From Schaalia odontolytica (GTDB taxonomy: Bacteria; Actinomycetota; Actinomycetes; Actinomycetales; Actinomycetaceae), in assembly GCF_005696695.1 (NCBI RefSeq), contig NZ_CP040006.1, positions 930,001 through 962,000 of the forward strand: a stretch of 32,000 bases of DNA, in the 5' to 3' direction. A program made the position numbers and the translations under genes. The notes under the pieces were generated by a model. It saw only the letters and a list, made by a program, of their open reading frames with translations. It did not search any database and had not been told where the DNA came from. Positions 3,118 through 15,831 of this stretch are shown piece after piece; positions within the stretch are counted from its first letter, which is position 1, and the number at the start of each line of letters is the position of its first letter.

Positions 3118-3996
3118 TCAGTGGACCAGGAAGCCCAGCGAACGGAAGTAGTTGCGGACCTCCTCGGTGGCCTCGGGCGTGGGAGCCTTCGTGTCCTCCA
3201 GCTGATACTCCAGGCCGAGGGAGTGCCACTTATCCTTGCCCAGCTGATGGAAGGGCAGGACCTCAACGCGATCGATGACGTCCTTCCAGCGCGAGACAAT
3301 CTCGCCGACCTGGCGCACGTTCTCGGGGTCGTCGGTCAGACCCGGAACCAGGACGAAGCGGATCCAGATGCGGGTGGCGCCACCGCGAGCCGCGATGCGG
3401 TCGCCGAACTCGATCGTGGGCGCCAGGGAACGTCCCGTCGCCTTCTTGTAGGTCTCCTCGTTGCCGCTCTTGACGTCCAGGAGCACCAGGTCGATCGCGT
3501 CGAGCATCTCGTCGTCGCAGTTCGCGCCCAGGAACCCTGAGGTGTCGATGCAGGTGTGAACGCCCATCTCCTTGGCACCCATCAGAATTCGCTTGGCGAA
3601 CTGCGGCTGCATGAGGACCTCGCCGCCGGACAGGGTGATGCCGCCGTTCGTCGTGCGGAAAATGCGGCGGTAGCGGGCAATGCGGGAGAGCAGCTCCGTG
3701 TCTGACACGGGAGCGCCGTCCTTCATGAGGAAGGTGTCGGGGTTGTGGCAGTACAGGCAGCGCAGCGGGCAGCCGTTGAGGAACACCGTCATGCGCGTGC
3801 CGGGGCCGTCAACGGCGGTGACGAGCTCCCAGGAGTGAATGGAACCCAGCGTGCCCTCACGCATGCGGCGCAGACGCTCGGAGCGCTCCAGGTCCGTGAT
3901 CTCCTCCAGGCCTTCGACGCCGGCGCCGACGGTACGGGATTGGGGAGCTTGGAAGTCCTGCTCACGGAACGTGGGGAGAGCGAGGGGCTGCGACAT
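3118..3996 (-). CDS. pflA: Pyruvate formate-lyase activating enzyme (radical-SAM glycyl-radical activase)
   Basis: Radical-SAM cluster motif CPLRCLYCHN, DGPGTR and GGITLSGGE. RBS GAAGGAA lies just upstream of the ATG at 3996. It has a ~44-aa N-terminal extension relative to the E. coli PflA start as I recall it; an internal ATG at 3864 is an alternative start. Confidence 0.9.
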   Translation of the reverse strand: MSQPLALPTFREQDFQAPQSRTVGAGVEGLEEITDLERSERLRRMREGTLGSIHSWELVTAVDGPGTRMTVFLNGCPLRCLYCHNPDTFLMKDGAPVSDTELLSRIARYRRIFRTTNGGITLSGGEVLMQPQFAKRILMGAKEMGVHTCIDTSGFLGANCDDEMLDAIDLVLLDVKSGNEETYKKATGRSLAPTIEFGDRIAARGGATRIWIRFVLVPGLTDDPENVRQVGEIVSRWKDVIDRVEVLPFHQLGKDKWHSLGLEYQLEDTKAPTPEATEEVRNYFRSLGFLVH

Positions 3997-4133: not shown

Positions 4134-4385
4134 TCAGGCCGAGTGGTGGAAGGTGCGGGACAGGACGTCCAGCTGCTGCTCACGGGTGAGCTTGACGAAG
4201 TTAACGGCGTAGCCGGAAACGCGAACGGTCAGGTTCGGGTACTTCTCGGGGTGCTCCATGGCGTCCTTCAGCGTGGACTCCTCGAGAACGTTGATGTTCG
4301 CGTGGTACAGGCCCTCCTTGTCGCCGCGCTCTTCGCGGGCGGCCTTCATGTCGGCGAGGCGCTCTTCGTAGGTCTTGGTTGCCAT
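4134..4385 (-). CDS. grcA: Stand-alone glycyl-radical domain protein (GrcA/YfiD-like), 83 aa
   Basis: Contains the glycyl-radical motif [11 protein letters not shown] and the flanking [13 protein letters not shown] strong SD (AAAAGGAGAAAT) sits directly upstream of the ATG at 4385. The longer GTG-started ORF (4451) has no SD. Confidence 0.85.
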
Positions 4386-4444
4386 AACATTTCTCCTTTT
4401 GTGAGATTCCGGCGGTGCCGGTTTGGGCGGGTCGCGGTGCGGCT

Positions 4445-4499
4445 CACCCACGAGTGGTGGGTGGCGGGGATCAACACGGGTGGCGCATCGATCCCCGCC
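4445..4499 (-). other. Two adjacent stable hairpins in the pflB-grcA spacer
   Basis: Plus-strand coordinates. CACCCAC (4445-4451) pairs with GTGGGTG (4457-4463) across a 5-nt loop. GGCGGGGATC (4463-4472) pairs with GATCCCCGCC (4490-4499), a perfect 10 bp with a 17-nt loop. On the mRNA the 10-bp stem begins 9 nt after the pflB TGA. Confidence 0.6.
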
Positions 4500-4508
4500 G
4501 ATGGTGGA

Positions 4509-6614
4509 TCAGTAGCCCTTGGTGCCGTCGTAGGCGCAGGAATCGTCCGGAACGAAGCCGGCGTCGAGGATGCCGACCAGGTTCTGGATCTGCTCTTCCT
4601 TGGAGCGGCCCAGGCCCTGCGGGGTGATCGTGTTCGTCAGCGAGATGCCGTCGAGCGCGTCGTTGTAGTCCAGCTTGCCGACCGACAGCATGGAAGCGAC
4701 CATGCCGTGCGTGTCGATGCCGTTCTCCGGGTTCGCGCCGGGGGCGAAGGGGGTGCCCTTCTGGTGGCCCGACGGGAAGGAGCCGGTGGCCTTGCCGTAG
4801 ACGACGTTCGAGGTGATCGTCAGGACCGACTGGGTCGGGATCGCGTCGCGGTACATGGGGATGGCGCGGATCTTGTCCATGACGGTGTGGACGACGGTCG
4901 CGGCGATGTCGTCGGCGCGGTCATCGTCGTTGCCGTAGGTCGGGAAGTCGCCCTCGGTGCGGTAGTCGACGACCAGGCCGGTCTCGTCGCGGATCGGGTA
5001 GACCTTCGCGTACTTGATGGCGGCCAGCGAGTCGGCAACGATGGACAGACCGGCGATGCCGCAGCCCATGGTGCGAATGATCTCGGAGTCGTGCAGCGCC
5101 ATCTCGATGGACTCGTAGGCGTAGCGATCGTGGCAGTAGTGGATGATGTTGAGGGCCTCGACGTAGGTGCCAACGACCCAGTCCAGCATCTCCTCGTAGC
5201 GCTTCCACACGTCATCGAAGTCGAGCGGGCCGTCACCCTGGACGGGCTCGTAGCCTTCCATGACCTGCTTGCCGGTCATCTCGTCGCGGCCACCGTTGAT
5301 GGCGTAGAGCAGGGCCTTGGCGGCGTTCACACGCGCGCCGAAGAACTGCATCTGCTTGCCGACCTTCATGGGGGAGACGCAGCATGCGATGGCGGCGTCG
5401 TCGCCCCAGTGCGCGCGGATCTGCGGATCGGACTCGTACTGGATCGACGAGGTGTCGATCGAGATGCGGGCGCAGAACTCCTTGTAGCCGCGGGGCAGGT
5501 TCTCGTCCCAGAAGATGGTGATGTTCGGCTCGGGGGCCGGGCCGAGGTTGACCAGCGTCTGGAGCAGACGGAACGAGGTCTTGGTGACCAGCGTACGGCC
5601 GTCGTCGCCGAAGCCGGCGTCCGACCAGGTGGCCCAGTAGGGGTCGCCCGAGAAGATCTGGTCGTAGGCGATGGTGCGCAGGAAGCGGGTGATGCGCAGC
5701 TTGATGACGAGGGCGTCGATGATCTCCTGGGCGCCGGACTCATCCAGCGTGCCGTTCTTCAGATCGCGCTCGAAGTAGACATCGAAGAAGCCGGACAGGC
5801 GGCCGATCGACATGGCGGCGCCGTCCTGGGACTTCACGGAGGCCAGGTAGCCGAAGTAGGTCCACTGCACGGCCTCGTGCGCGTTGGTGGCCGGGCCGGA
5901 GATGTCGTAGCCGTAGGACTGCGCCAGGTTCTTCAGCTTCTTGAGGGCCTTGATCTGCTCGGAGTGCTCCTCGCGGTAACGCGCCCAGTGCTCGGAGAAG
6001 GGCTCGTTCGCGTAACGATCCTTGTCCTTTTCCTTCTCGGCGATGAGGTGGTCAACGCCGTAGAGGGCCACGCGGCGGTAGTCGCCGATGATGCGGCCAC
6101 GGCCGTAGGCGTCCGGCAGACCGGTGATGATGTGGGAGGAACGAGCAGCACGAATACGCGGCGTGTAGATATCGAAGACCGCATCGTTGTGGGTCTTGCG
6201 GTACTTGGTGAAGATCTTCTTCACCTCGGGGTTGTACTCCATGCCGGCCTCGTGAATGGCCGTCTCGACCATGCGCCAGCCGCCGTTCGGCATCATCGCG
6301 CGCTTCAGGGGGGCATCGGTCTGCAGGCCGACGATCACGTTGTCGTCCTCGCAGATGTAGCCGGGCTTGAAAGCATCGATGTCGGCGGGGGTGTCCGTGT
6401 CGATGTCGAGGATGCGCACCTTGCGCTCTTCGGAGAGGTACTTCTCTTCGAGAGTGTTCCACACGCGCAGGGTCTTCTCGGTCGGCCCTGCCAGGAACGA
6501 GGCGTCGCCCTCGTACGGGGTGTAGTTCAGCTGGATGAAATCACGAACGTCGATTTCATCGCACCAGTTACCCTTTACGAAACCTTCCCAGGCCTTCTGG
6601 TCTGCTGTCGTCAT
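4509..6614 (-). CDS. pflB: Formate C-acetyltransferase (pyruvate formate-lyase) catalytic portion, lacking the C-terminal glycyl-radical domain
   Basis: Catalytic Cys pair in AIACCVSPMKVGKQMQFFGARVN. It appears collinear with E. coli PflB (from memory) up to ...GILDAGF, then ends at a TGA (4509-4511) before any RVSGY motif. Start ATG at 6614 with RBS GAAGAGGAAGA. The 21 codons further upstream in the ORF track lack support. Confidence 0.9.
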   Translation of the reverse strand: MTTADQKAWEGFVKGNWCDEIDVRDFIQLNYTPYEGDASFLAGPTEKTLRVWNTLEEKYLSEERKVRILDIDTDTPADIDAFKPGYICEDDNVIVGLQTDAPLKRAMMPNGGWRMVETAIHEAGMEYNPEVKKIFTKYRKTHNDAVFDIYTPRIRAARSSHIITGLPDAYGRGRIIGDYRRVALYGVDHLIAEKEKDKDRYANEPFSEHWARYREEHSEQIKALKKLKNLAQSYGYDISGPATNAHEAVQWTYFGYLASVKSQDGAAMSIGRLSGFFDVYFERDLKNGTLDESGAQEIIDALVIKLRITRFLRTIAYDQIFSGDPYWATWSDAGFGDDGRTLVTKTSFRLLQTLVNLGPAPEPNITIFWDENLPRGYKEFCARISIDTSSIQYESDPQIRAHWGDDAAIACCVSPMKVGKQMQFFGARVNAAKALLYAINGGRDEMTGKQVMEGYEPVQGDGPLDFDDVWKRYEEMLDWVVGTYVEALNIIHYCHDRYAYESIEMALHDSEIIRTMGCGIAGLSIVADSLAAIKYAKVYPIRDETGLVVDYRTEGDFPTYGNDDDRADDIAATVVHTVMDKIRAIPMYRDAIPTQSVLTITSNVVYGKATGSFPSGHQKGTPFAPGANPENGIDTHGMVASMLSVGKLDYNDALDGISLTNTITPQGLGRSKEEQIQNLVGILDAGFVPDDSCAYDGTKGY

Positions 6615-6768
6615 TCTTCCTCTTCTCGGATGTCCGTATCCCGTTGTGGGGACGGTATGTTCGGAGCGAAGCTCCATGTGCGTCGGATTCCAACGCTTAG
6701 GCCCATTGTCCTACGGCTTGGGGGGTCTCCACAACCCATATCGACCGACAGTCTATGTTCTGTGTCTC

Positions 6769-6799
6769 AGGATATGGGCCCATAGTCTCTGTCGGTCAA
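6769..6799 (-). promoter_or_regulatory. Candidate pflB promoter with a 12-bp perfect palindrome in its spacer
   Basis: On the minus strand: TTGACC (plus 6794-6799), a 19-nt spacer, then TATCCT (plus 6769-6774). The palindrome TATGGGCCCATA (6773-6784) lies in the spacer and overlaps the -10. The spacing is longer than ideal, so this is tentative. Confidence 0.3.
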
Positions 6800-6800
6800 A

Positions 6801-6873
6801 TTGTGGGACCAAGGTCCTTAAGAGAAGGGAGGGGCTTTGACCGCCTACACTGGTACCAGTGCCCGTCCCACAA
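6801..6873 (+). promoter_or_regulatory. Structured region upstream of hom (long-range 9-bp dyad abutting the SD)
   Basis: TTGTGGGAC (6801-6809) is the exact reverse complement of GTCCCACAA (6865-6873). The 3' arm runs into the hom SD AAAGGAG (6872-6878). Internal palindromes are GGACCAAGGTCC (6806-6817) and CTGGTACCAG (6850-6859). Confidence 0.3.
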
Positions 6874-6888
6874 AGGAGAAAAAGTCCT

Positions 6889-8196
6889 ATGTCTGCACCC
6901 CGTCCTGTCCTCGGAGTTGGCGTTCTTGGAGCCGGAACCGTCGGTAGCCAGGTCATTCGCATTCTTCAGTCGAGTCGCGAGGATTTCGCCGCTCGCTCGG
7001 GCGCGGAGATGGAGGTGCGCCGCGTCCTCGTCCGCAATGTGGATGCCCCGCGTGACGCTCCGATCGACCGCGAGCTGCTGACGACCGACCCGGCCGAGGC
7101 GATCGACAACATGGATCTCGTCGTCGAGCTGATCGGCGGTATTGAGCCCGCTCGCACCCTCGTGCTGCGCGCCCTCAACCAGGGCATCTCGGTCGTCACC
7201 GGCAACAAGGCCCTCCTGGCCGCCCACGGTCCCGAGCTTTACGAGGCAGCCGCGTCTAACGGTGCCGACCTCTACTACGAGGCCGCCGTTGCGGGCGCCG
7301 TCCCCGTCGTGTACGGCCTGCGCGAGTCCCTCGCCGGCGACCGCATCACGACCGTCATGGGCATCGTCAACGGCACGACGAACTTCATCCTGGACGCGAT
7401 GAGCACCAAGGGGCTGAGCTACGAGGATGCTCTCAAGCAGGCGCAGGACCTCGGTTTCGCCGAGGCCGACCCCACCGCCGACGTCGAGGGTTTCGATGCA
7501 GCCGCCAAGTGCTCCATCCTGGCCTCCCTGGCCTTCCACACGCGCGTCGGCATTGACGACGTCGCTGTCGAAGGCATCTCGAGCATCACCAAGGAAGACA
7601 TGGAGGAGGCCGCTCGCGTCGGCCACACCATCAAGCTCCTGGCCATCGCCGAGCGCCGCATCGGCGAGGACGGTCGCGAGGGCGTCGCCATGCGCGTCCA
7701 CCCCGCACAGGTTCCCTCCGATCACCCGCTCGCTTCCGTCGACGGCGCTTTCAACGCGATCCTCGTTGAGGGCGAGGCCGCGGGTCGTCTCATGTTCTAC
7801 GGCCAGGGAGCGGGCGGCGCTCCCACGGCCTCGGCTGTTCTGTCCGACCTCGTCGCCGCGGCGCACCACCGCGCCTTCGGTGGGCATGCCCCGCGCGAGT
7901 CGGTCTACGCCCACCTGCCGATCCTCGATCCCGGCTCGACGCACACGCGTTACCAGATCCGCCTCCAGGTCGAGGACCGCCTCGGCGTCCTGTCCGACGT
8001 TGCCGGAATCTTCGCCCGCCACGGCGTCTCGATCCAGTCCGTGCACCAGCGCAACGACGAGGTGCCCGGTGCCTGCGTCATCGTCGTGACCAGCCACCGC
8101 GCCCGCGAGGCCGACCTGCGCGCCGTCGCACGTGCGTTGTCCGTCTCCGACGCGGTGCGCGAGGTGACCTCCACGATCCGCGTTGAGGGTGAGTGA
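6889..8196 (+). CDS. hom: Homoserine dehydrogenase
   Basis: N-terminal NAD(P)-binding motif VGVLGAGTVGSQV. The C-terminal region looks ACT-like (YQIRLQVEDRLGVLSDVAGIFARHGVSIQSV). ATG at 6889 is preceded by AAAGGAG. Confidence 0.92.
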   Translation: MSAPRPVLGVGVLGAGTVGSQVIRILQSSREDFAARSGAEMEVRRVLVRNVDAPRDAPIDRELLTTDPAEAIDNMDLVVELIGGIEPARTLVLRALNQGISVVTGNKALLAAHGPELYEAAASNGADLYYEAAVAGAVPVVYGLRESLAGDRITTVMGIVNGTTNFILDAMSTKGLSYEDALKQAQDLGFAEADPTADVEGFDAAAKCSILASLAFHTRVGIDDVAVEGISSITKEDMEEAARVGHTIKLLAIAERRIGEDGREGVAMRVHPAQVPSDHPLASVDGAFNAILVEGEAAGRLMFYGQGAGGAPTASAVLSDLVAAAHHRAFGGHAPRESVYAHLPILDPGSTHTRYQIRLQVEDRLGVLSDVAGIFARHGVSIQSVHQRNDEVPGACVIVVTSHRAREADLRAVARALSVSDAVREVTSTIRVEGE

Positions 8197-8197
8197 C

Positions 8198-9148
8198 GTG
8201 CGCCTGCGTGATGATTTCGTTGCGGTGAAGGTTCCCGCGACCAGCGCGAACCTCGGCCCCGGATTCGACTCCATGGGCCTGGCTCTCGACCTGTGGGACG
8301 AGGTCTCGGTCCACGCGACGACGGGGGCCACCTCGGTCGTCGTCGAGGGTGAGGGAGCCGGAAACGTTGAGCAGGGCGAGGACAACCTCGTCGTGCGCGC
8401 GCTGCGCCTCGCACTCGACCGCGTCGGCGCGCCCCAGGTGGGCGTGCGTATGCACTGCACGAATCGGATCCCCCATTCCCGAGGCCTGGGTTCCTCTGCG
8501 AGTGCGATCGTCGCCGGTGTGACCCTGGCGCGCGCCCTCATCGGTGACGCCGACGTGCTCGGCCGCCAGGAGATCCTCGAAATCGGCTCGCAGATGGAGG
8601 GCCACCCCGACAACGTTGCTCCGGCCGTCTTCGGCGGCGCGACCGTGTCGTGGATGAATGAGGAGACCTCCGAGGTTGGCAGCGTTCGCCTGACCCCGCC
8701 CGAGGGTATTCACCCGGTCGCCTTCATCCCAGACTTCGAGCTGCGCACCGCCGCCGCGCGTGCCGCGCTGCCCGCGACCGTGCCCCACGGTGACGCGAGC
8801 TTCAACGTCGCCCGCGGCGCCCTGCTGGCCGCCGTGCTCTCGGGCAATGCGCAGGCGAGCGGGGGAGCGGACCTGCACTTTCTCCTCATGGAGGCCACCC
8901 GCGATCGCCTTCATCAGGAGCAGCGTCGGGCCGCGATGGAACCCTCCCTCGCCCTCGTCGATTGGCTGCGCGGCGCCGGCTTTGCCGCCGTCGTCTCCGG
9001 CGCGGGCCCGACGGTCCTCTCCCTGGAATCCGTCGGTGCCGACATCCGCCGGGATGCCGCGGCTGCCGGGTGGCGAGTCGTCCCGATGGGCGTGGCTCCC
9101 CAGGGTGTCCAGATCACCCGCGGAAGCCTCTCGAAGGTGGAATTCTGA
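8198..9148 (+). CDS. thrB: Homoserine kinase
   Basis: GHMP-kinase motif PHSRGLGSSASA, and N-terminal VPATSANLGPGFDS. Start chosen as the GTG at 8198, 1 nt after the hom TGA, with GAGGGTGAG upstream. In-frame TTG 8183 and GTG 8189 are alternatives. Confidence 0.88.
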   Translation: MRLRDDFVAVKVPATSANLGPGFDSMGLALDLWDEVSVHATTGATSVVVEGEGAGNVEQGEDNLVVRALRLALDRVGAPQVGVRMHCTNRIPHSRGLGSSASAIVAGVTLARALIGDADVLGRQEILEIGSQMEGHPDNVAPAVFGGATVSWMNEETSEVGSVRLTPPEGIHPVAFIPDFELRTAAARAALPATVPHGDASFNVARGALLAAVLSGNAQASGGADLHFLLMEATRDRLHQEQRRAAMEPSLALVDWLRGAGFAAVVSGAGPTVLSLESVGADIRRDAAAAGWRVVPMGVAPQGVQITRGSLSKVEF

Positions 9149-9235: not shown

Positions 9236-9365
9236 CAGGTTGAGACGAATGTTCGACTTCGGCCTTCGCGATGCACCTCTTTTGTGCATCTTCCTGATCA
9301 AGCTTTTTCATGTGCTTGAGCAATCACCTCGCCCGCTGTGGGCGCATTCCAGTAAGGATCACTTC
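9236..9365 (+). promoter_or_regulatory. rho 5' leader region with hairpins
   Basis: GATGCAC (9270-9276) pairs with GTGCATC (9284-9290) across a 7-nt loop. CAAGC (9299-9303) pairs with GCTTG (9314-9318). The stretch is unusually AT-rich for this genome. I could not define a promoter. Confidence 0.3.
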
Positions 9366-11108
9366 GTGAGCAACGAAACCTCCGCCGATACGGCCGCGTC
9401 GCTGTCGGCGATGAAGCTGCCTGAGCTGAAGGCTCTGGCCGCCTCCCGCGGCCTCAAGGGCATCTCCCAGCTTCGTAAGTCCCAGCTGATCGAGCTGCTG
9501 AGCAACGGCGCCGGCGCCTCGACCCCGCAGGAAAAGGCTCCCCGCAAGGAAGCCGCTGCCTCGTCCGAGAAGAAGGCTGACAAGGCTGAGAAGCCGGCCG
9601 CCGAAAAGTCGGTTGAGCAGGCTTCCGCGTCCGACGCGCCCGCCGAGGCTCCGCGACGCTCTCGCCGCCGCCGCGCTGTGAGCCAGGGCGCCGTTGAGCC
9701 CGCGCACGTCACCCTCGACCTGCCCCTGCCGGCCGCCGAACGCACCGAGCCCACTCCGGAGCCCGACACGAGCGTCGTCGAGACCGTCCTGAACATCGAG
9801 CTGCCCGACGGCGATGACACCGAGGCACGTCGCCCCCGCCGTGAGCGCGGCCGCCGTGGTCGTCGCGACCGTGAGAACCGTGAGAACCGCGGCGAGGGTC
9901 GTGAGAATCGCGAGAACCGCGAGAACCGCGGCGAGGGTCGTGAGAACCGCGAAGCTCGCCCCGCGCGCGGCGGCGAGGATAACCTCGCGCCGATCGCCGG
10001 CATCCTCGATATCCAGGAAAACCACGCCTTCGTGCGCACCTCCGGCTACCTGCCCGGCCCGAACGACGTCTACGTGACGCTCGGCAACGTGCGCCGCTGG
10101 GGCCTGCGCGCTGGCGACGCGGTCGCCGGTGCCGTGCGCCTGCCCCGCGAGGGCGAGCGTCAGCGCCAGAAGTACAACGCCCTCGTGCGCGTTGACTCCG
10201 TCAACGGCATGACGATCGAGCAGGCACAGGCGCGCCGCGAGTTCGGTAAGCTGACCCCGGTCTACCCCTCCGAGCAGCTGCGCATGGAGACCTCTCCCAA
10301 GGCCTACACGCCGCGCGTCATCGACCTGGTCGCCCCCGTCGGCAAGGGCCAGCGCGGCCTCATCGTCTCCCCGCCCAAGGCCGGTAAGACGATGGTCATC
10401 CAGCAGATGGCCAAGGCTATTGAGCTGAACAACCCCGAGGTGCACCTCATGGTCGTCCTGGTGGACGAGCGTCCCGAAGAGGTCACCGACATGCGCTCGA
10501 TCGTCAAGGGTGAGGTCATCGCTTCCACCTTCGACCGTCCCGCATCGGACCACACGACCGTCGCCGAGCTCGCGATTGAGCGCGCCAAGCGCCTGGTCGA
10601 GCTGGGCCAGGATGTCGTCGTGCTCCTCGACTCGCTCACGCGTCTGTCGCGCGCATACAACCTGGCTGCGCCCGCCTCGGGCCGTATCCTCTCCGGTGGC
10701 GTCGACGCGTCCGCGCTGTACCCGCCCAAGAAGTTCTTCGGCGCTGCCCGCAACATCTCCGAGGGCGGCTCGCTGACGATCATCGCCTCCGCGCTGGTGG
10801 AGACGGGTTCGAAGATGGACGAGGTCATCTTCGAGGAGTTCAAGGGCACCGGCAACATGGAGCTGCGCCTGTCGCGTCAGCTCGCCGAGCGTCGCATCTT
10901 CCCCGCAATCGACCTCAACGCGTCGGGCACCCGTCGCGAGGAGTTGCTCTTCAAGCCCGAGGAGCTGCGCATCATGTGGAGGCTCCGCCGCGTCCTGGGC
11001 ACCCTCGACCAGCAGCAGGGCCTCGAGCTGGTCCTCGATAAGCTCAAGGAAACCCAGTCCAACGCTGAGTTCCTCATGCTCATCCAGAAGACGACGCCCT
11101 CCGAGTGA
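9366..11108 (+). CDS. rho: Transcription termination factor Rho with a long N-terminal Arg/Glu/Asn/Ala-rich insertion
   Basis: Rho N-terminal helix bundle ([30 protein letters not shown]), an RNA-binding domain, and Walker A in [13 protein letters not shown]. Start chosen as the in-frame GTG at 9366 with AAGGA 8 nt upstream. The product is about 580 aa against about 419 aa in E. coli. Confidence 0.93.
9882..9959 (+). repeat. 39-bp tandem duplication inside rho (encodes [13 protein letters not shown] x2) built on a 9-bp (R-E-N) sub-repeat
   Basis: Copy 1 is 9882-9920 and copy 2 is 9921-9959. The first 26 nt are identical, and 34/39 match overall by hand alignment. GAGAACCG[CT] units extend upstream from 9872. 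Confidence 0.85.
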
Positions 11109-11117
11109 TCGGCGGGT

Positions 11118-11162
11118 GAGAGCGGGGCGAGTGGCGAGAGCCGCTCGCCCCGCTTTCTTTTC
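11118..11162 (+). terminator. Strong intrinsic terminator of rho
   Basis: AGCGGGGCGAG (11121-11131) pairs perfectly with CTCGCCCCGCT (11144-11154). The stem extends through a U-G wobble and GGC/GCC to a GAGA tetraloop, about 15 bp in total. TTCTTTTC follows directly (11155-11162). Confidence 0.8.
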
Positions 11163-11215
11163 GGTGCACGCCCCAATACCGGACAACTGATGAGGGGCTG
11201 TGTCAGACTTGGGGC

Positions 11216-12388
11216 ATGGTGAACATGGCGCCGAATTCGATCAATGCGCAGGCGACACGGGAATCCTCGCGCCGGTCCTGGAGTGCTGCGCGCGGATCTC
11301 TGCGCCTCGTTCTTGGTCTATTTCTCTTGCTGGTGGCTCCCCTTCAGCTGGCGATCGCCATCTATGATCAGGCCCATCACGGGATGGGGGAGGCTGTGGA
11401 CTGGCCGAATTGGACCGGCTGGGTCATGGCGCTGTGCGGAATCGGAGTGCTGTGGCGCGGCGCTGATCTTCGGCGCTCGGGGCGTCAGAAAGTGACGATG
11501 ATCGCTGAGAAATGGGCTGCCTTGGAGAGCCGGCGGGCAGAGGTTGAGCGCGTGTTTTCCACGCTCGTCGGCGCAGGTTACTACGAGATCGGACTGACGG
11601 CGCGCCACGAGTGTGCCCGAGCCGAACGCGTCAGGGTTGGCGCTCGGATCGCCGAGCACAGGCCTCCGGGTTTCCTCGCGTCGCTCAGCGAGGCGTCGGC
11701 AGGCGCGGGGGATGAGATCCTTGCGCGGATGGAACGCCTGGCAGACGCGGATGCCGCGATCATGGCTGCGCGCGGCTTTTTCGCGCTCGCGCCCGGCTGG
11801 CGCGACGTGTGGAAGACCGAGGTCGGCCCGATCATCGAAGACCTGGACATACTCGACGACGTCGCAGACACCCTCGAAAGTGTCAATACGGACCCGCGAA
11901 TCCTGACGGACATTGAGGCTTTCAGGGAGCGCGTGGGGGATGACAAGGACACGGTGAACGACCTCGGGACACGCCTTGAGGGCGGGCAGATCGCTCCCAC
12001 TCAGGCCCTCGAAGAACTCGACCGGATCACCAACGAAGCGCGAGCACGCACCGCCGAGCTCATCGAGGAAACTCTCGCAACGGATGCCTCGGCGCAGGGA
12101 CGGCAACGCTACGCCCGATGGAAGAACACAGGCATCAGGCTCACCGCGGCGAACGCGGAGTACGACGCAGCCTATTGGAGCCAGGACGCGGACACTGACA
12201 TCGAGTACAACCCGGCGGCCACGATTCGACTGACCGCAAATTCAGCAGGCGTTGACCTGGAAGGGCTACCCGCTCCGGCGACCGGTATCCTCACGGCTGG
12301 CGGCTCGTCCGTCTATCTACTGCCCATGTACCTCGAGCAATACCTGAGCGACGACGTGGACGAGGCAGGCGGAGGCTCGTCGACCTGA
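11216..12388 (+). CDS. Two-TM membrane protein, paralog A of a three-gene family (no ectodomain; ~310-aa cytoplasmic module of unknown function)
   Basis: Coding is supported by three-way amino-acid conservation with the next two ORFs. TM1 is LRLVLGLFLLLVAPLQLAIAIY and TM2 is WTGWVMALCGIGVLW, followed by the basic stretch RGADLRRSGRQK. Shared motifs are FALAPGWRDVW..EVGPIIEDL and YNPAATIRLTANSAGVDL. The ATG at 11225 is an alternative start. Confidence 0.8.
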   Translation: MVNMAPNSINAQATRESSRRSWSAARGSLRLVLGLFLLLVAPLQLAIAIYDQAHHGMGEAVDWPNWTGWVMALCGIGVLWRGADLRRSGRQKVTMIAEKWAALESRRAEVERVFSTLVGAGYYEIGLTARHECARAERVRVGARIAEHRPPGFLASLSEASAGAGDEILARMERLADADAAIMAARGFFALAPGWRDVWKTEVGPIIEDLDILDDVADTLESVNTDPRILTDIEAFRERVGDDKDTVNDLGTRLEGGQIAPTQALEELDRITNEARARTAELIEETLATDASAQGRQRYARWKNTGIRLTAANAEYDAAYWSQDADTDIEYNPAATIRLTANSAGVDLEGLPAPATGILTAGGSSVYLLPMYLEQYLSDDVDEAGGGSST

Positions 12389-12478
12389 GGGCGGAAGCGA
12401 CATCTCATTGTCGTCGCTGCGGGTATCAGAGTGCTGAGCCAGCGCGCGCATGAGGTCGGACCGTGACACAGTGGATGC

Positions 12479-14143
12479 ATGACTTCAGTGACGACCGAAT
12501 CGGCAAACGAGGAACGCGGCCACATGACGGCGCGAGACGTGAAGCGCTCGGTGCGAGGGGTGGGCCGGATCCTGCTGGGCGTCGTCATGGCGATCTGCGT
12601 TCCCGTGTGGCTGGTGTTCTCCTTCGTTGAATTCACCCGGCCCACGGTGCCAGCCAGCGAACTCGTCGCGCCGTCTGTCGAGGTGCACGACGAGACGGGA
12701 AGCTTCGGGCCGGTCGACGGGCGAACGCTGACAGACGCCCTCGGCGACGTCACGTTCACGCGTCCCATCCACCTCGTCATCTTGTCAACGGATGACCTGG
12801 TGGACGACAACCTCGACGAGGCGACCCTCAAGTACGCGCGGGCCGGGCATAAGGAGTGGATCTCACCCAATGGGTACAAGTGGGCCGACGGCTACCTGAT
12901 CCTGTCGGTGTCGCCCACCCACCGCAAGGTGGGGACGTACTTCGGCGAGGACATCGCCCCGTTGCTGTCCGTGCAAGAGGAGATCCAGGACGCCGCGAAG
13001 GACGACTTCCGTGCGGGCCGCTGGAGTGCGGGGATCGTCGCCGCGGCCACGAAGGCTGCCGCAAACATCCCGAACGAGGCAGGCTACAGCATTAAGAACC
13101 GAGTCGTCTGGCCTCACTGGACGGGATGGCTGATCTCGCTTACGGGCATCGGCGTGCTCCTGCGCGGACGCAGCCTGCGCCGGACGGTACGAGAAAGCTC
13201 CGAGCGTATTGCTGAGGCGTGGAAGGAGATGGAGGGGCGTCGCTCGGAGGTGGATCGTGCTTTCCACTCGATCGTCGATGCGGGGCAATATAGCAAGGGG
13301 CTGACCGTGCGCTACGGGTGCGCTAACCAGGAGCGCAAGAAGGTGCGCGAGCGCGTCTCCGTCCTGCGATCCCCTGGGTTTTTCGGATCCCTCAGCGCCG
13401 GCGCGGCAAGCGAGCGAGAGGAACTGCTCGAAGATATCGAGCTGCTGTCGGCCGCCGATGACGCGATTTTCGCCGCCCGCGACTTTTTCGCGCTGGCTCC
13501 GGGGTGGCGCCATCTGTGGGACAACGAGGTGGGACCGGTCTTCGAAGACCTGTTAGCCGCGGATTCCATCTCAGTCAAGGTGCGCAACCGCGTCAAGAAG
13601 CGTCAAGTGAAGAACGCAGTCGAGGCCTTTAACCGCTGGACGAACGAGCAGCGGGACATCATCGTCGGACTCGGAACGAGCCTGGAGCGCGCGGAGATCA
13701 CTCTGGTGCAGGCTCTCGACGAGCTGGACCGAATCGCGAGCGAGTCTCGCGCGCGACTGACGAAGCTCATCGGGCAGGCACTCGTCGCCGACACTTCCTC
13801 GTCTGGGCGTCAGCGCTACGAGCATTGGGAAAGCAACAAGGGCGGTACCGTCAGCGCCAGCGAGGTGCTCTACAAGGGCACGTACCTGAGTGGCGGTGAC
13901 CACCATGAGTACAACCCCGCCTCGACGATCCGCCTGACCGCGAACTCTGCGGGTGTTCGCCTGACGGGCAAGGCTGCGGAGAAGTCCGGCCGTTTCCAGG
14001 CGAACAATGTGTCCGTCTGGGCGTATCCGACGTATCTCGATCGCTACGTGGACTACGAACCGTCCAGCTCCTCGACCAGTTCAGCGGACTACGGCTCATC
14101 CTCGGGTGGCTTCTCGGGTTCCGGCTCGTCCTCGTCCTTCTGA
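12479..14143 (+). CDS. TPM-domain membrane protein, paralog B (TM1 - extracytoplasmic TPM domain - TM2 - shared cytoplasmic module - Ser/Gly tail)
   Basis: Between TM1 (ILLGVVMAICVPVWLVFSFV) and TM2 (WTGWLISLTGIGVLL) lies a ~150-aa segment fitting the TPM/YgcG pattern (VHDETG...IHLVILSTDDL...WADGYLILSVSPTHRKVGTYFGEDI...DDFRAGRWSAGI). The C-terminal module is homologous to paralogs A and C. The tail is SSSSTSSADYGSSSGGFSGSGSSSSF. The ATG at 12524 is an alternative start. Confidence 0.85.
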   Translation: MTSVTTESANEERGHMTARDVKRSVRGVGRILLGVVMAICVPVWLVFSFVEFTRPTVPASELVAPSVEVHDETGSFGPVDGRTLTDALGDVTFTRPIHLVILSTDDLVDDNLDEATLKYARAGHKEWISPNGYKWADGYLILSVSPTHRKVGTYFGEDIAPLLSVQEEIQDAAKDDFRAGRWSAGIVAAATKAAANIPNEAGYSIKNRVVWPHWTGWLISLTGIGVLLRGRSLRRTVRESSERIAEAWKEMEGRRSEVDRAFHSIVDAGQYSKGLTVRYGCANQERKKVRERVSVLRSPGFFGSLSAGAASEREELLEDIELLSAADDAIFAARDFFALAPGWRHLWDNEVGPVFEDLLAADSISVKVRNRVKKRQVKNAVEAFNRWTNEQRDIIVGLGTSLERAEITLVQALDELDRIASESRARLTKLIGQALVADTSSSGRQRYEHWESNKGGTVSASEVLYKGTYLSGGDHHEYNPASTIRLTANSAGVRLTGKAAEKSGRFQANNVSVWAYPTYLDRYVDYEPSSSSTSSADYGSSSGGFSGSGSSSSF

Positions 14144-14194
14144 GTCCCATCGGGATACCGGGCAACTGAAGGCGATCCGTGCCAGAGTGGAGCC

Positions 14195-15394
14195 ATGACG
14201 TCTCAGGCAACGGAAACGATGAGTCACGCACCCCAGCATCCTCGCGCGGTCATGCGCAGCGCGCGAGGCTGTGCGCGCCTCCTGGCGGGTCTCGCCCTCT
14301 TTCTGGTGGCCCCCGTGTGGCTCGGCATCGCCGTGTCCGTCGGTGCATCGCACAGCATGCTGTGGCCCACCTGGTACGCGTGGGTGGCGACGCTCGCGGG
14401 CATCGGCCTGTGGGCGCGCGGGTGGATGCTGCGCCGCGTCGCCCGCGAGAACATGCGGAAGGCATCCGATGAGTGGGAGGCGCTCGAAAAGCGTCACCTG
14501 GAGGTCGAGCGTGCCTTTCTTCCACTCCTCGGGACCGGGCGCTACGACCGCGGTCTGACTGCGCGCCTCGAGGCAGCTCGGGCCGAGCACGAGAAACTTC
14601 GCGTTCGTCTTGCAACGGTGGTGACACCTCCGTTCCTCGCCTCGCTCAGCGCGGCAACAGCGTGGGAGGCGGATGAGATCGTCAAGGACTTCCACGGTCT
14701 GATGGATGCCCACGCCGCGATGATGGCCGCGCGCGATCTGTTCGCGCTGGCTCCTGCCTGGCGCAGGGTGTGGGAGAACGAGCTGGGGCCGGTGTACGAG
14801 GACCTAACCGTCGTCGAGACCATCACGCAAACTGTCCAGAGTAGAAGCATGGACCCGACCGTCCTCAGCATGGCTGCCTCCCTCGTGCTGTGGCTCGATG
14901 AGCAGCGCCTGGCTGTCAACGAGCTGGGGGCGAGTCTCGAGCGCGCGCAGATTGATCCTGCTGGGGCACTCACGCAGCTCGACCGCATCGCCGACGAGGC
15001 CAGGGTGCGGCTCGTGTGCCTCGTCGAGGCGGCTCTCGGTGCCGACACGTCCATGATTGGGCGGAGGCGTTACAAGCGCTGGAGGAAGGGCGCGGGGGAG
15101 AAGCTGCGCAGGAACGAGACATGCTACCTCGGCGCCTACCGGATCGCCGGCGTGACGTACACCTACAACCCCGCTCAGGCGATTCGCCTGACCGCAAACA
15201 GCGCGGGTATCAACCTCAAGGGGAGTGCGGCCCATTCCACCGCGCGCTTCACGGCGTTTGGCGCGGAGCTCTACGTGCCGCCCGCGTACCTCCATCGCTA
15301 CCTCGTGTGGGACGGAACCTCGCGGTACGGCTCCTCGCGAGCGAACTACCTGACGTCGGCCGCAAACCTCGATCCGCGCGGGCGCACACGCTGA
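14195..15394 (+). CDS. Two-TM membrane protein, paralog C of the three-gene family
   Basis: TM1 is ARLLAGLALFLVAPVWLGIAVSV and TM2 is WYAWVATLAGIGLWA, followed by the basic stretch RGWMLRRVAREN. Shared motifs are FALAPAWRRVW..ELGPVYEDL and YNPAQAIRLTANSAGINL. GGAG lies upstream of the ATG. Confidence 0.8.
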   Translation: MTSQATETMSHAPQHPRAVMRSARGCARLLAGLALFLVAPVWLGIAVSVGASHSMLWPTWYAWVATLAGIGLWARGWMLRRVARENMRKASDEWEALEKRHLEVERAFLPLLGTGRYDRGLTARLEAARAEHEKLRVRLATVVTPPFLASLSAATAWEADEIVKDFHGLMDAHAAMMAARDLFALAPAWRRVWENELGPVYEDLTVVETITQTVQSRSMDPTVLSMAASLVLWLDEQRLAVNELGASLERAQIDPAGALTQLDRIADEARVRLVCLVEAALGADTSMIGRRRYKRWRKGAGEKLRRNETCYLGAYRIAGVTYTYNPAQAIRLTANSAGINLKGSAAHSTARFTAFGAELYVPPAYLHRYLVWDGTSRYGSSRANYLTSAANLDPRGRTR

Positions 15395-15451: not shown

Positions 15452-15480
15452 TTGAAGGGGGTGGGGGCGTGTGCGATAAT
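15452..15480 (+). promoter_or_regulatory. Candidate housekeeping-sigma promoter of rpmE
   Basis: TTGAAG (15452-15457), an exact 17-nt spacer, then GATAAT (15475-15480). A TG at 15472-15473 gives an extended -10 (TGcGATAAT). Confidence 0.5.
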
Positions 15481-15609
15481 GTCGTGTCGGCTTACCGGTT
15501 CACCGGCATGCCCCAGGCGCTTTTGGCGCGCTGGAAGGTGAGTCCCCGCCAGATGCGGGGGACGCTGCATGTCCGGACCCGGGGCACCAAACGATCCAGG
15601 AGAAACTCC
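15481..15609 (+). promoter_or_regulatory. Structured 5' leader of rpmE (candidate L31 autoregulatory leader)
   Basis: About 120 nt between the candidate -10 and the ATG, holding several hairpins: CCGG-TTCA-CCGG, an imperfect CCAGGCGC-TTTT-GGCGCGCTGG, GTCCCCGC-CAGAT-GCGGGGGAC (one bulged G), and the GTCCGGAC palindrome. The SD AGGAGA is at 15596-15601. Confidence 0.4.
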
Positions 15610-15831
15610 ATGAAGCAGGGTATTCACCCCGAATACGTGGACACCGTCGTGACCTGCACGTGCGGCAACTCGTTCCACACCCGTTCCACCATCACCTCCG
15701 GTGAGATGCGCGTGGACGTGTGCTCGGCCTGCCACCCGTTCTACACGGGCAAGCAGAAGATCCTCGACACCGGCGGCCGCGTCGCCAAGTTCGAGGCTCG
15801 CTACGGCAAGCGCGTGCGCCCCTCCAAGTGA
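15610..15831 (+). CDS. rpmE: 50S ribosomal protein L31 (zinc-binding type A)
   Basis: [10 protein letters not shown]..., a CTCG...[12 protein letters not shown] four-Cys pattern, and AGGAGA 8 nt upstream. The 62-codon upstream extension in the ORF track is not supported. Confidence 0.93.

Follow-up and report, generated by a model that had tools for sequence, protein, structure and literature searches.

Three tandem genes lying between rho and rpmE in Schaalia odontolytica, here called A, B and C, are all members of the Pfam family DUF5129 (PF17173). The DNA analysed, referred to below as the window, is a stretch of 32,000 nucleotides (positions 930,001 to 962,000 of contig NZ_CP040006.1). 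Judged from sequence, A, B and C are real genes: each of them scores above the gathering threshold of Pfam DUF5129, intact orthologues are present in about 20 genomes, and the ratio of nonsynonymous to synonymous substitution rates (dN/dS) is <0.5. B carries a TPM domain and is called headed in the following, and A and C are headless paralogs. DUF5129 is a catalogued but uncharacterised family. The original prediction put the array forward as a candidate for an undescribed system, which turns out to be overstated, because the family is catalogued by Pfam as DUF5129 and annotated so by NCBI. New with respect to the searchable literature are the tandem arrangement of headed and headless members and its recurrence, the fixed residence of the family in the rho-rpmE interval within a single subclade, the mosaic and deeply divergent alleles of B, and a duplicated putative promoter box.

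The three genes and their products

The coordinates in the list of open reading frames (ORFs) match exactly the earlier description of three same-strand ORFs of 390, 554 and 399 amino acids (aa), separated by spacers of 90 bp (A-B) and 51 bp (B-C). The genes and the predicted parts of their products, including the first and second transmembrane segments (TM1 and TM2), are as follows.

11216-12388, + strand: gene A, 390 aa, headless DUF5129 paralog; TM1 about aa 29-50, TM2 about aa 66-84, cytoplasmic helical module aa 85-375
12479-14143, + strand: gene B, 554 aa, headed DUF5129 protein
12566-12634, + strand: TM1 of B (aa 30-52), hydropathy 2.61; helix 18-52 in the AlphaFold2 (AF2) model
12659-13078, + strand: extracytoplasmic TPM domain of B (aa 61-200), from Pfam (aa 69-194), AF2 and Foldseek
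13115-13180, + strand: TM2 of B (aa 213-234), with the W-rich cap WPHWTGW
13181-14053, + strand: cytoplasmic DUF5129 module of B (aa 235-525), about seven helices of 25-35 residues each
13487-13552, + strand: invariant core motif of B, FFALAPGWR..W.NE.GP..EDL (aa 337-358)
14054-14140, + strand: Ser/Gly-rich tail of B ending in GSSSGGFSGSGSSSSF, conserved in nearly all headed members
14195-15394, + strand: gene C, 399 aa, headless DUF5129 paralog; TM segments about aa 27-48 and 60-80, cytoplasmic module aa 81-372

With a DUF5129 cut-off of 27.3 bits, B scores 154.6 bits (E = 4.7e-45), A 34.0 bits and C 28.1 bits, so that all three pass. B covers positions 6-337 of the 337-position model, A positions 235-337 and C positions 139-337; because only the C-terminal part of the model is matched in A and C, these two are regarded as truncated, headless members of the family. 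The TPM family (PF04536; cut-off 22.1 bits) is matched by B with 23.9 bits over aa 69-194, and by neither A nor C at E ≤ 1 in the Pfam scan, which agrees with the expectation that a TPM domain would be found in B only. A fourth, TPM-bearing paralog found in related genomes (D) and the distant relatives described below also match DUF5129 in Pfam.

The pairwise identity among A, B and C is 42-46% in a three-way alignment, and the BLASTP E values of 4e-91 (A-C) and 1e-88 (A-B) are much beyond chance. The alignment is ungapped from WPxW through EDL, and its invariant columns spell WP.W..W...L.GIG...G..LRR, FALAP.WR..W..E.GP..EDL, GR.RY..W, YNPA..IRLTANSAG and Y.P.YL..Y. The paralogy, the motifs and the ungapped stretch after the shared TM segment, all reported earlier from inspection of the sequence, were therefore borne out.

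In all three proteins TM1 is strongly hydrophobic and preceded by four or five K/R within 15 residues (five in B), and TM2 has a W-rich WPxWxxW cap and moderate hydropathy and is followed by five or six K/R in the next 15 residues; in B, RGRSLRRTVRESSER, with six K/R, comes directly after TM2. By the positive-inside rule, a cytoplasmic position is predicted for the N-terminus and for all that follows TM2, and an outside position for the segment between the two TM segments. This segment comprises around 160 residues, including the TPM domain, in B, and is a loop of 7-13 residues in A and C, which have neither a TPM domain nor a Gly/Ser tail. The C-terminal sequence of almost every TPM-bearing member is GG(F)SG(S/A)GSSS(S/R/H)F.

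The cytoplasmic module (about 290 aa) has strongly conserved acidic and aromatic motifs, and its helices in B are followed by the conserved segment Y.G.Y...YNPASTIRL..NSAG. All of the family-invariant residues (in B numbering W343, W347, E350, G352, P353, E356, D357 and L358, and further A412..E422, D438, R446, Y478, P480, I484 and R485) are located in this module, and none in the TPM head. There is no recognisable enzymatic signature, catalytic or nucleotide-binding, in the sequence of the module, and hhalign comparisons of its segments with one another gave probabilities of ≤1.2%, that is, no internal repeats.

The AF2 models were built from shallow alignments of 22-27 sequences, all from close relatives. 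The model of B (22 sequences) has a mean predicted local distance difference test score (pLDDT) of 66.5, with around 88 in the TPM head; after TM2 come some seven helices, each 25-35 residues long and with a pLDDT of 56-90, and then a β-hairpin around Y.G.Y...YNPASTIRL, which is modelled poorly, and a disordered Ser/Gly tail. The model of C agrees with that of B. In a Foldseek search of the PDB with the B model, only TPM structures were matched, with probability 1.0: cg2496 (2kpt, E = 1.8e-3), AscF (8ovc_V, 6adq_J and 8hcr_J), TLP18.3 (3pvh), BA42 and Psb32; the accessions matched include 2lt2/4oa3 and 8c7i (probability 1.00), and target-normalised TM-scores are 0.5-0.6. The C model, which is of moderate quality, gave best E values of 0.49 (PDB) and 0.059 (BFVD), to generic three-helix or spectrin-like bundles. 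Kinship of the module with LemA, PspA/ESCRT-III, SPFH proteins, chemoreceptors or spectrin was considered and not retained, the generic Foldseek matches permitting no such claim.

A profile search of the cytoplasmic module against all PDB sequences gave a best E value of 0.085, to unrelated chance matches. NCBIfam has no family for A, B or C, the PADLOC-DB models gave 0 matches to them at E ≤ 0.1, and PHROGs gave no match; a known defence system and a prophage origin were rejected on the last two results. Rfam recognised nothing within the window. It turns out, as the original prediction supposed, that the shared module is without a characterised relative, by sequence or by fold. A HMMER search with a module-only profile against 1.84 billion cluster representatives found just 183 proteins at E ≤ 1e-3. 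Most of them are 470-575 aa long and have a match beginning at residue 70-120, which is the layout of B and the ancestral one of the family, and the headless layout is essentially restricted to the A and C types. The named DUF5129 members come from Actinomyces oris, A. naeslundii, A. viscosus, A. vulturis and one Brachybacterium. DUF5129 is thus the Actinomyces-restricted DUF to which the original prediction alluded, its named relatives being almost all Actinomycetaceae.

Searches of the literature for DUF5129, cg3192 and TPM with Actinomyces found no functional study. The sole experimental mention of DUF5129 concerns Cg3192 of Corynebacterium glutamicum, a member of the family adjoining glfT2, for which an intergenic transposon hit is ambiguous (PMC7775120). 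The position of Cg3192 beside glfT2 is a weak hint of an envelope link for DUF5129.

The signals in and around the array are as follows.

11118-11167, + strand: intrinsic terminator of rho, an 18-pair G+C-rich stem (11118-11157) and a T-run
11176-11190, + strand: 15-nt box ATACCGGACAACTGA, separated by 25 nt from the ATG of A
11201-11209, + strand: extended -10-like element TGTCAGACT, 6 nt before the ATG of A
12464-12472, + strand: extended -10-like element TGACACAGT, 6 nt before the ATG of B
14155-14169, + strand: the 15-nt box again, ATACCGGGCAACTGA, separated by 25 nt from the ATG of C
14180-14188, + strand: extended -10-like element TGCCAGAGT, 6 nt before the ATG of C
15452-15480, + strand: rpmE promoter-like site, TTGAAG-17-GATAAT, TG-extended; consensus match only
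15610-15831, + strand: rpmE, with an AGGAGA ribosome-binding site before the ATG

An element of the form TGNCA[GC]A[CG]T ends 6 nt before each of the three ATG codons in the aligned spacers of nine loci. Such a distance from -10 element to ATG is expected for promoters of leaderless mRNAs in Actinobacteria, and the elements appear to be candidate promoters giving one leaderless mRNA per gene. The element before B is kept even in divergent B alleles. A start of B at M16 (12524; 539 aa), as proposed by many gene callers, was rejected, M16 not being conserved in those alleles. Position 12479 is favoured as the true start of B because the -10-like element is conserved and M16 is not. The 15-nt box ATACCGGRCAACTGA exists in exactly two perfect copies in the window and was found upstream of A-, C- and D-type genes only (16 loci); it is a putative -35 region or operator that may have been duplicated along with the gene.

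A terminator had been foreseen after rho, with a stem of about 15 bp at 11118-11162, and one was found there with an 18-pair stem; it is kept in nine syntenic loci. The promoter of its own attributed to rpmE at 15452-15480 is present as a promoter-like site, identified by consensus match only. The terminator and this site delimit the array on its upstream and downstream side, respectively. The approximately 130 nt between this site and the rpmE start (15481-15609) have no Rfam match and could be a ribosomal-protein leader.

Distribution and evolution of the array

Scanning of GTDB with one genome per species gave 36 DUF5129 loci, all from Actinomycetaceae (titles Schaalia, Pauljensenia and Actinomyces). 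All loci with enough flanking sequence, except L035 (A. culturomici), have DUF5129 between rho and rpmE, in the shared order hom-thrB-rho-[one to three DUF5129 genes]-rpmE-prfA-prmC. Some records bear unexpected titles. Those titled 'Xylanimonas cellulosilytica 352_XCEL' and 'Sanguibacter keddieii 250_SKED' have flanking genes 92-96% identical to those of the window, are 94-100% identical to it over the whole block, and are evidently mislabelled; a 'Trueperella pyogenes' metagenome-assembled genome and a 'Mycobacteroides abscessus' protein (P0130, 95% identical to C) also fall within the family and look mislabelled or contaminated. The labels concerned are those of L001, L007, L031 and P0130.

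For comparison, metagenome contigs were scanned with the Rho C-terminal domain, and 80 loci with 63-100% identity were obtained. In 31 of the 80, rpmE lies <600 bp after rho, and in at least 20 prfA follows rho by 30-284 bp, without rpmE. DUF5129 follows rho in only two of the 80, namely L041 (the species of the window) and L042 (Rho 92% identical). In Mycobacterium tuberculosis rho, rpmE and prfA are adjacent (Rv1297-1299). Four or five of the metagenome loci, from other high-GC lineages, have unrelated inserts between rho and rpmE: an oxidoreductase, a helicase resembling UvrD, an ABC ATPase and, with no match in Pfam, two large ORFs of 678 and 506 aa (L070, 1493-3529; L075, 7606-9126; L093, 1499-6751; L110, 9181-13756). 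It would seem from this that the region following the rho terminator is generally permissive and a recurrent landing place.

The G+C content at third codon positions (GC3) is 0.75-0.82 in A, B and C and 0.81-0.90 in their flanks, and recent horizontal acquisition was rejected on the closeness of these values. The original prediction described the array as a lineage-specific insertion. The placement between rho and rpmE is indeed lineage-specific, but the insertion is old and not a recent event involving three genes, the slot being occupied across a whole subclade of Actinomycetaceae.

The contents of the slot vary. One headed gene is found in the A. marseillensis group and L036, and two in L029 and L031; A and D are found in L023, B and C in L008 and L009, A, B and D in L012 and L013, and A, B and C in the S. 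odontolytica/Pauljensenia group. In neighbour-joining trees (no bootstrap) there are four paralog clades, all of which arose in this subclade, with C nearest to D. The comparison of sequences indicates that the ancestral occupant was one TPM-bearing gene, that A and C are later duplicates that lost head and tail, and that the array expands when genes are duplicated and shrinks by deletion, with loss of the head in some copies.

In A. oris and A. naeslundii (loci L037, 3806-10918; L038, 501-8419; L039, 6935-9629) the family occupies another slot, between the genes for RidA and DUF5926. A. oris has two genes, encoding a headless protein of 340 aa and a headed one of 542 aa. A. naeslundii has five tandem genes, together with 42-75-aa fragments of a decayed TPM-bearing copy, and overlaps of 4 bp among the last three genes imply that their translation is coupled. 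Because the headless members of these species cluster in the neighbour-joining trees with their own headed neighbours and not with A or C, the loss of the head beside a headed copy has occurred independently. In Brachybacterium and A. culturomici a solitary DUF5129 gene has unrelated neighbours. No conserved neighbour or partner gene from outside the family was found at the A. oris, A. naeslundii, Brachybacterium and A. culturomici loci.

Values of dN/dS were computed by the NG86 method between the window and 12 syntenic genomes.

A: 0.20-0.45
B: 0.09-0.28, and 0.46 versus L023, in which the D-type paralog is the best match
C: 0.23-0.42
hom: 0.00-0.05
thrB: 0.03-0.11
rho: about 0
prfA: 0-0.03
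prmC: 0.08-0.22

On these sequence comparisons, A, B and C are probably functional but weakly constrained, being under purifying, relaxed selection, and decay, which had been named as an alternative, is refuted for the array as a whole (0.09-0.45). Every locus examined has an intact B. C shows a truncation in L009 and an altered C-terminus in L018, and metagenome assemblies contain forms that are fused or frameshifted (P0034, P0036 and P0078). Intact A is present in around 19 loci and intact C in around 16, in lineages with a flanking synonymous divergence (dS) of up to 0.7.

The alleles of B were compared between the window and L021, L028, L014, L016 and L012/L013. For L021 (S. odontolytica UMB0018) and L028, DNA identity to the window is 92-97% in the flanks, with a dS of 0.12-0.32, and 67% in B, with a protein identity of 56% and a dS of 1.36-1.53. 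Region by region, identity between the two allele classes is lowest in the cytoplasmic N-terminus with TM1 (26-35%) and in the initial helices of the cytoplasmic part (36%), and highest in the TPM head (70%). The B gene of L014 is a clean mosaic: its residues 1-340 follow the L021 type (90-100% identity) and its residues 341-554 that of the window (93-97%), and the switch lies near codon 340, at the invariant FFALAPGW...NEVGPVxEDL block. When segment types are assigned in 22 B genes, the combinations 1-1-1-1-1, 2-2-2-2-2, 3-2-3-2-2, 3-2-3-1-1 and 4-1-1-3-1 are found. The N-terminal/TM region of C is 38-55% identical in exactly those loci that have non-type-1 N-terminal segments of B, and this covariation of B and C fits co-adapted interfaces and, equally, linkage. 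Divergent mosaic B alleles in a near-identical core block are a population-genetic puzzle in a common oral commensal.

The gene order of the window is hom, thrB, rho, A-B-C, rpmE, prfA, prmC and the atp genes. The listed ORF of rho (9240-11108, + strand), directly before the array, begins with a TTG at 9240 that is probably too far upstream, and the N-terminal part of Rho has a repetitive insert rich in Arg, Glu and Asn at about aa 200-250. The genes hom and then thrB (6859-9148) overlap by 14 nt, with no thrC in between; the order in M. tuberculosis is thrA-thrC-thrB. Further upstream, an 880-aa ORF at 4143-6785 (+ strand), rich in V, G, D and A and without a Pfam match, appears to be an antisense artefact. 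The real gene there is probably the 722-aa ORF at 4509-6677 (- strand), next to a radical-SAM/4Fe-4S activase (compare 3118-3996, - strand), and the two look like a candidate anaerobic ribonucleotide reductase pair.

Possible roles of A, B and C

We tentatively favour, with a confidence that falls somewhat short of even, a non-enzymatic adaptor or scaffold role for the three proteins in the assembly or maintenance of the cell envelope or in the maintenance of a membrane complex. Characterised TPM proteins are auxiliary or adaptor subunits of membrane complexes, and it is by analogy with them that such a role is preferred here. The recurrent retention of headless copies beside headed ones and the translational coupling in A. 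naeslundii are as expected of co-assembling subunits, and they lend indirect support to the heteromeric membrane complex that the original prediction considered probable. In the mechanism that we envisage, each gene would be transcribed from its own promoter as a leaderless mRNA, and A, B and C would co-assemble beneath the membrane as a hetero-oligomeric platform, held together by the TM hairpins and the helical modules. B alone would supply an outside TPM head and a cytoplasmic tail and might be the core subunit, and A and C may be dispensable modulators of stoichiometry or partner choice.

Several points weigh against the adaptor role. Each gene seems to have its own promoter-like element, and co-expression is not guaranteed. 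L008 and L009 have no A, L014 has a frameshifted one, and D stands in place of C in L012, L013 and L023; because natural strains exist without A or C, an obligate three-part complex is unlikely. A linked pspA, SPFH or other partner gene was found in no locus examined, the AF2 models of the module are moderate (mean pLDDT 61-66), and linkage alone may explain the covariation of B and C. Several TPM domains are credited with phosphatase or ATPase activity in vitro, as cited in PMC13456599, so that an enzymatic head is conceivable.

The paralogs may instead be independent variants, each acting alone or as a homo-oligomer, that undergo birth-and-death evolution under balancing or diversifying selection from a variable external or mobile partner, for instance as a phage receptor, as an exclusion factor or in inter-strain antagonism. 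The range of copy numbers (1-3 here and 2-5 in the A. oris/A. naeslundii slot, with the decayed copy in A. naeslundii), the 56% identity of B alleles at a dS of 1.36-1.53 within flanks at 0.12-0.32, the segmental mosaicism of B as in L014, dN/dS values in A, B and C that are 5-20 times those of their neighbours, and the promoter-like element of each gene are all in its favour. We nevertheless regard it as unlikely: divergence peaks in the cytoplasmic N-terminus, TM1 and first helices (26-36%) and not in the exposed TPM head (70%), hardly any residues of A and C are extracytoplasmic, dN/dS stays far under 1, the locus is a chromosomal core locus of native GC3, and PADLOC and PHROGs are empty. 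The phosphatase and ATPase activities in vitro lead to a different proposal, which we judge quite unlikely, that B is primarily an enzyme outside the cytoplasm, its TPM domain being an acid phosphatase or nucleotidase, and that the module and the headless paralogs only regulate or localise it. B passes the Pfam TPM_phosphatase threshold and has the TPM fold, and phosphatase or ATPase activity has been reported for TLP18.3, Rv2345 and BA41 (as cited in PMC13456599). However, the activities reported for TPM domains are weak and their validity is disputed, and AscF/AscG does not bind metals or nucleotides (PMC13456599); moreover, the family-invariant residues are in the cytoplasmic module and not in the head, and headless copies are under purifying selection in several lineages.

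Another possibility is that A and C are functionless duplicates in the course of being lost and that only B matters. This would account for the absence or frameshift of A in L008, L009 and L014, for the truncated or altered C of L009 and L018, for the fused and frameshifted forms in metagenome assemblies, and for a dN/dS that is higher in A and C than in B. Yet A and C persist intact in some 19 and 16 loci across flanking dS values of up to 0.7, their dN/dS of 0.2-0.45 indicates purifying selection, the upstream box and -10-like element are conserved, and the motif columns are invariant across A, B and C, so that we consider loss of function highly improbable.

DUF5129 might also be an unrecognised submembrane hetero-oligomeric scaffold or cage of mixed headed and headless subunits, the interfaces of which (TM1 and the proximal helices) diversify by segmental recombination; this we hold to be very unlikely. 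If true, it would represent a new Actinomycetaceae-specific machine for envelope maintenance or partner recognition, a natural system for studying the function of the TPM head, and a functional analogue, of unrelated fold, of HflK/C- or PspA-type assemblies. TPM domains are present in all kingdoms, and few have a defined role (photosystem II repair, the mycobacterial respiratory supercomplex, the PspA anchor and the acetylcholine receptor). The present family joins a TPM head to a module without a relative of known structure, and headless tandem partners have evolved repeatedly, so that the natural sets of headed and headless genes are a ready-made domain-deletion series. A. oris is genetically tractable and has a two-gene version, which makes the hypothesis testable. 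If DUF5129 is merely a dispensable membrane family, the interest will be local.

Comparison with known systems

B covers the whole Pfam DUF5129 model, which corresponds to the TPM domain, TM2 and the first ~200 aa of the module; the model ends before the conserved ADTS...GR.RY...YNPASTIRL region and the tail. A TPM domain between two TM segments, followed by a Gly/Ser-rich C-terminus, is the usual layout of bacterial membrane TPM proteins (COG1512/YgcG). With the TPM family as a whole (TLP18.3, Psb32 and MOLO-1; 2KPT, BA42 and AtTLP18.3) aa 61-200 of B share both the sequence signature and the fold, whereas the ~290-aa helical module between TM2 and the tail of B and the want of a TPM domain in A and C set the present proteins apart.

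HflK/HflC, flotillins and prohibitins are tandem, N-terminally anchored paralogs with long helices that form large hetero-oligomers. A, B and C have no Pfam or fold match to Band_7/SPFH, and the likeness to such pairs is one of analogy, not homology.

In Bacillus subtilis, YdjH, a product of the pspA-ydjGHI operon, interacts with itself and is a membrane anchor for PspA and for the SPFH protein YdjI (PMC8581546). The predicted layout of B, with an N-terminal TM segment, an outside TPM domain, a second TM segment and a cytoplasmic low-complexity or coiled-coil tail, fits that of a YdjH-type anchor (PMC11237479). The C-terminus of YdjH, known from a primer sequence, is ...GSRGSF (PMC8581546), and both proteins thus end in a G/S-rich stretch and then Phe. 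However, YdjH is without the DUF5129 module, its known sequence kinship with B is that of the TPM head, and no pspA, SPFH or ydjG-like gene is linked to A, B and C.

In the mycobacterial respiratory supercomplex CIII2CIV2, two polypeptides, AscF and AscG, make up a non-enzymatic TPM adapter, and neither metals nor nucleotides are bound by it (PMC13456599); AscF (8ovc_V, 6adq_J and 8hcr_J) is a structural match to the TPM domain of B. In contrast to B, in which this domain is predicted to lie outside, the TPM domain of AscF is cytoplasmic, is completed by a strand of AscG and is not joined to a DUF5129 module; the Schaalia-type DUF5129 genes are not linked to respiratory genes. TLP18.3/Psb32 and MOLO-1 have auxiliary roles at membrane complexes, as cited in PMC13456599. 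Thus, the characterised TPM proteins, namely YdjH, AscF/AscG, TLP18.3, Psb32 and MOLO-1, are all auxiliary or adaptor subunits of membrane complexes.

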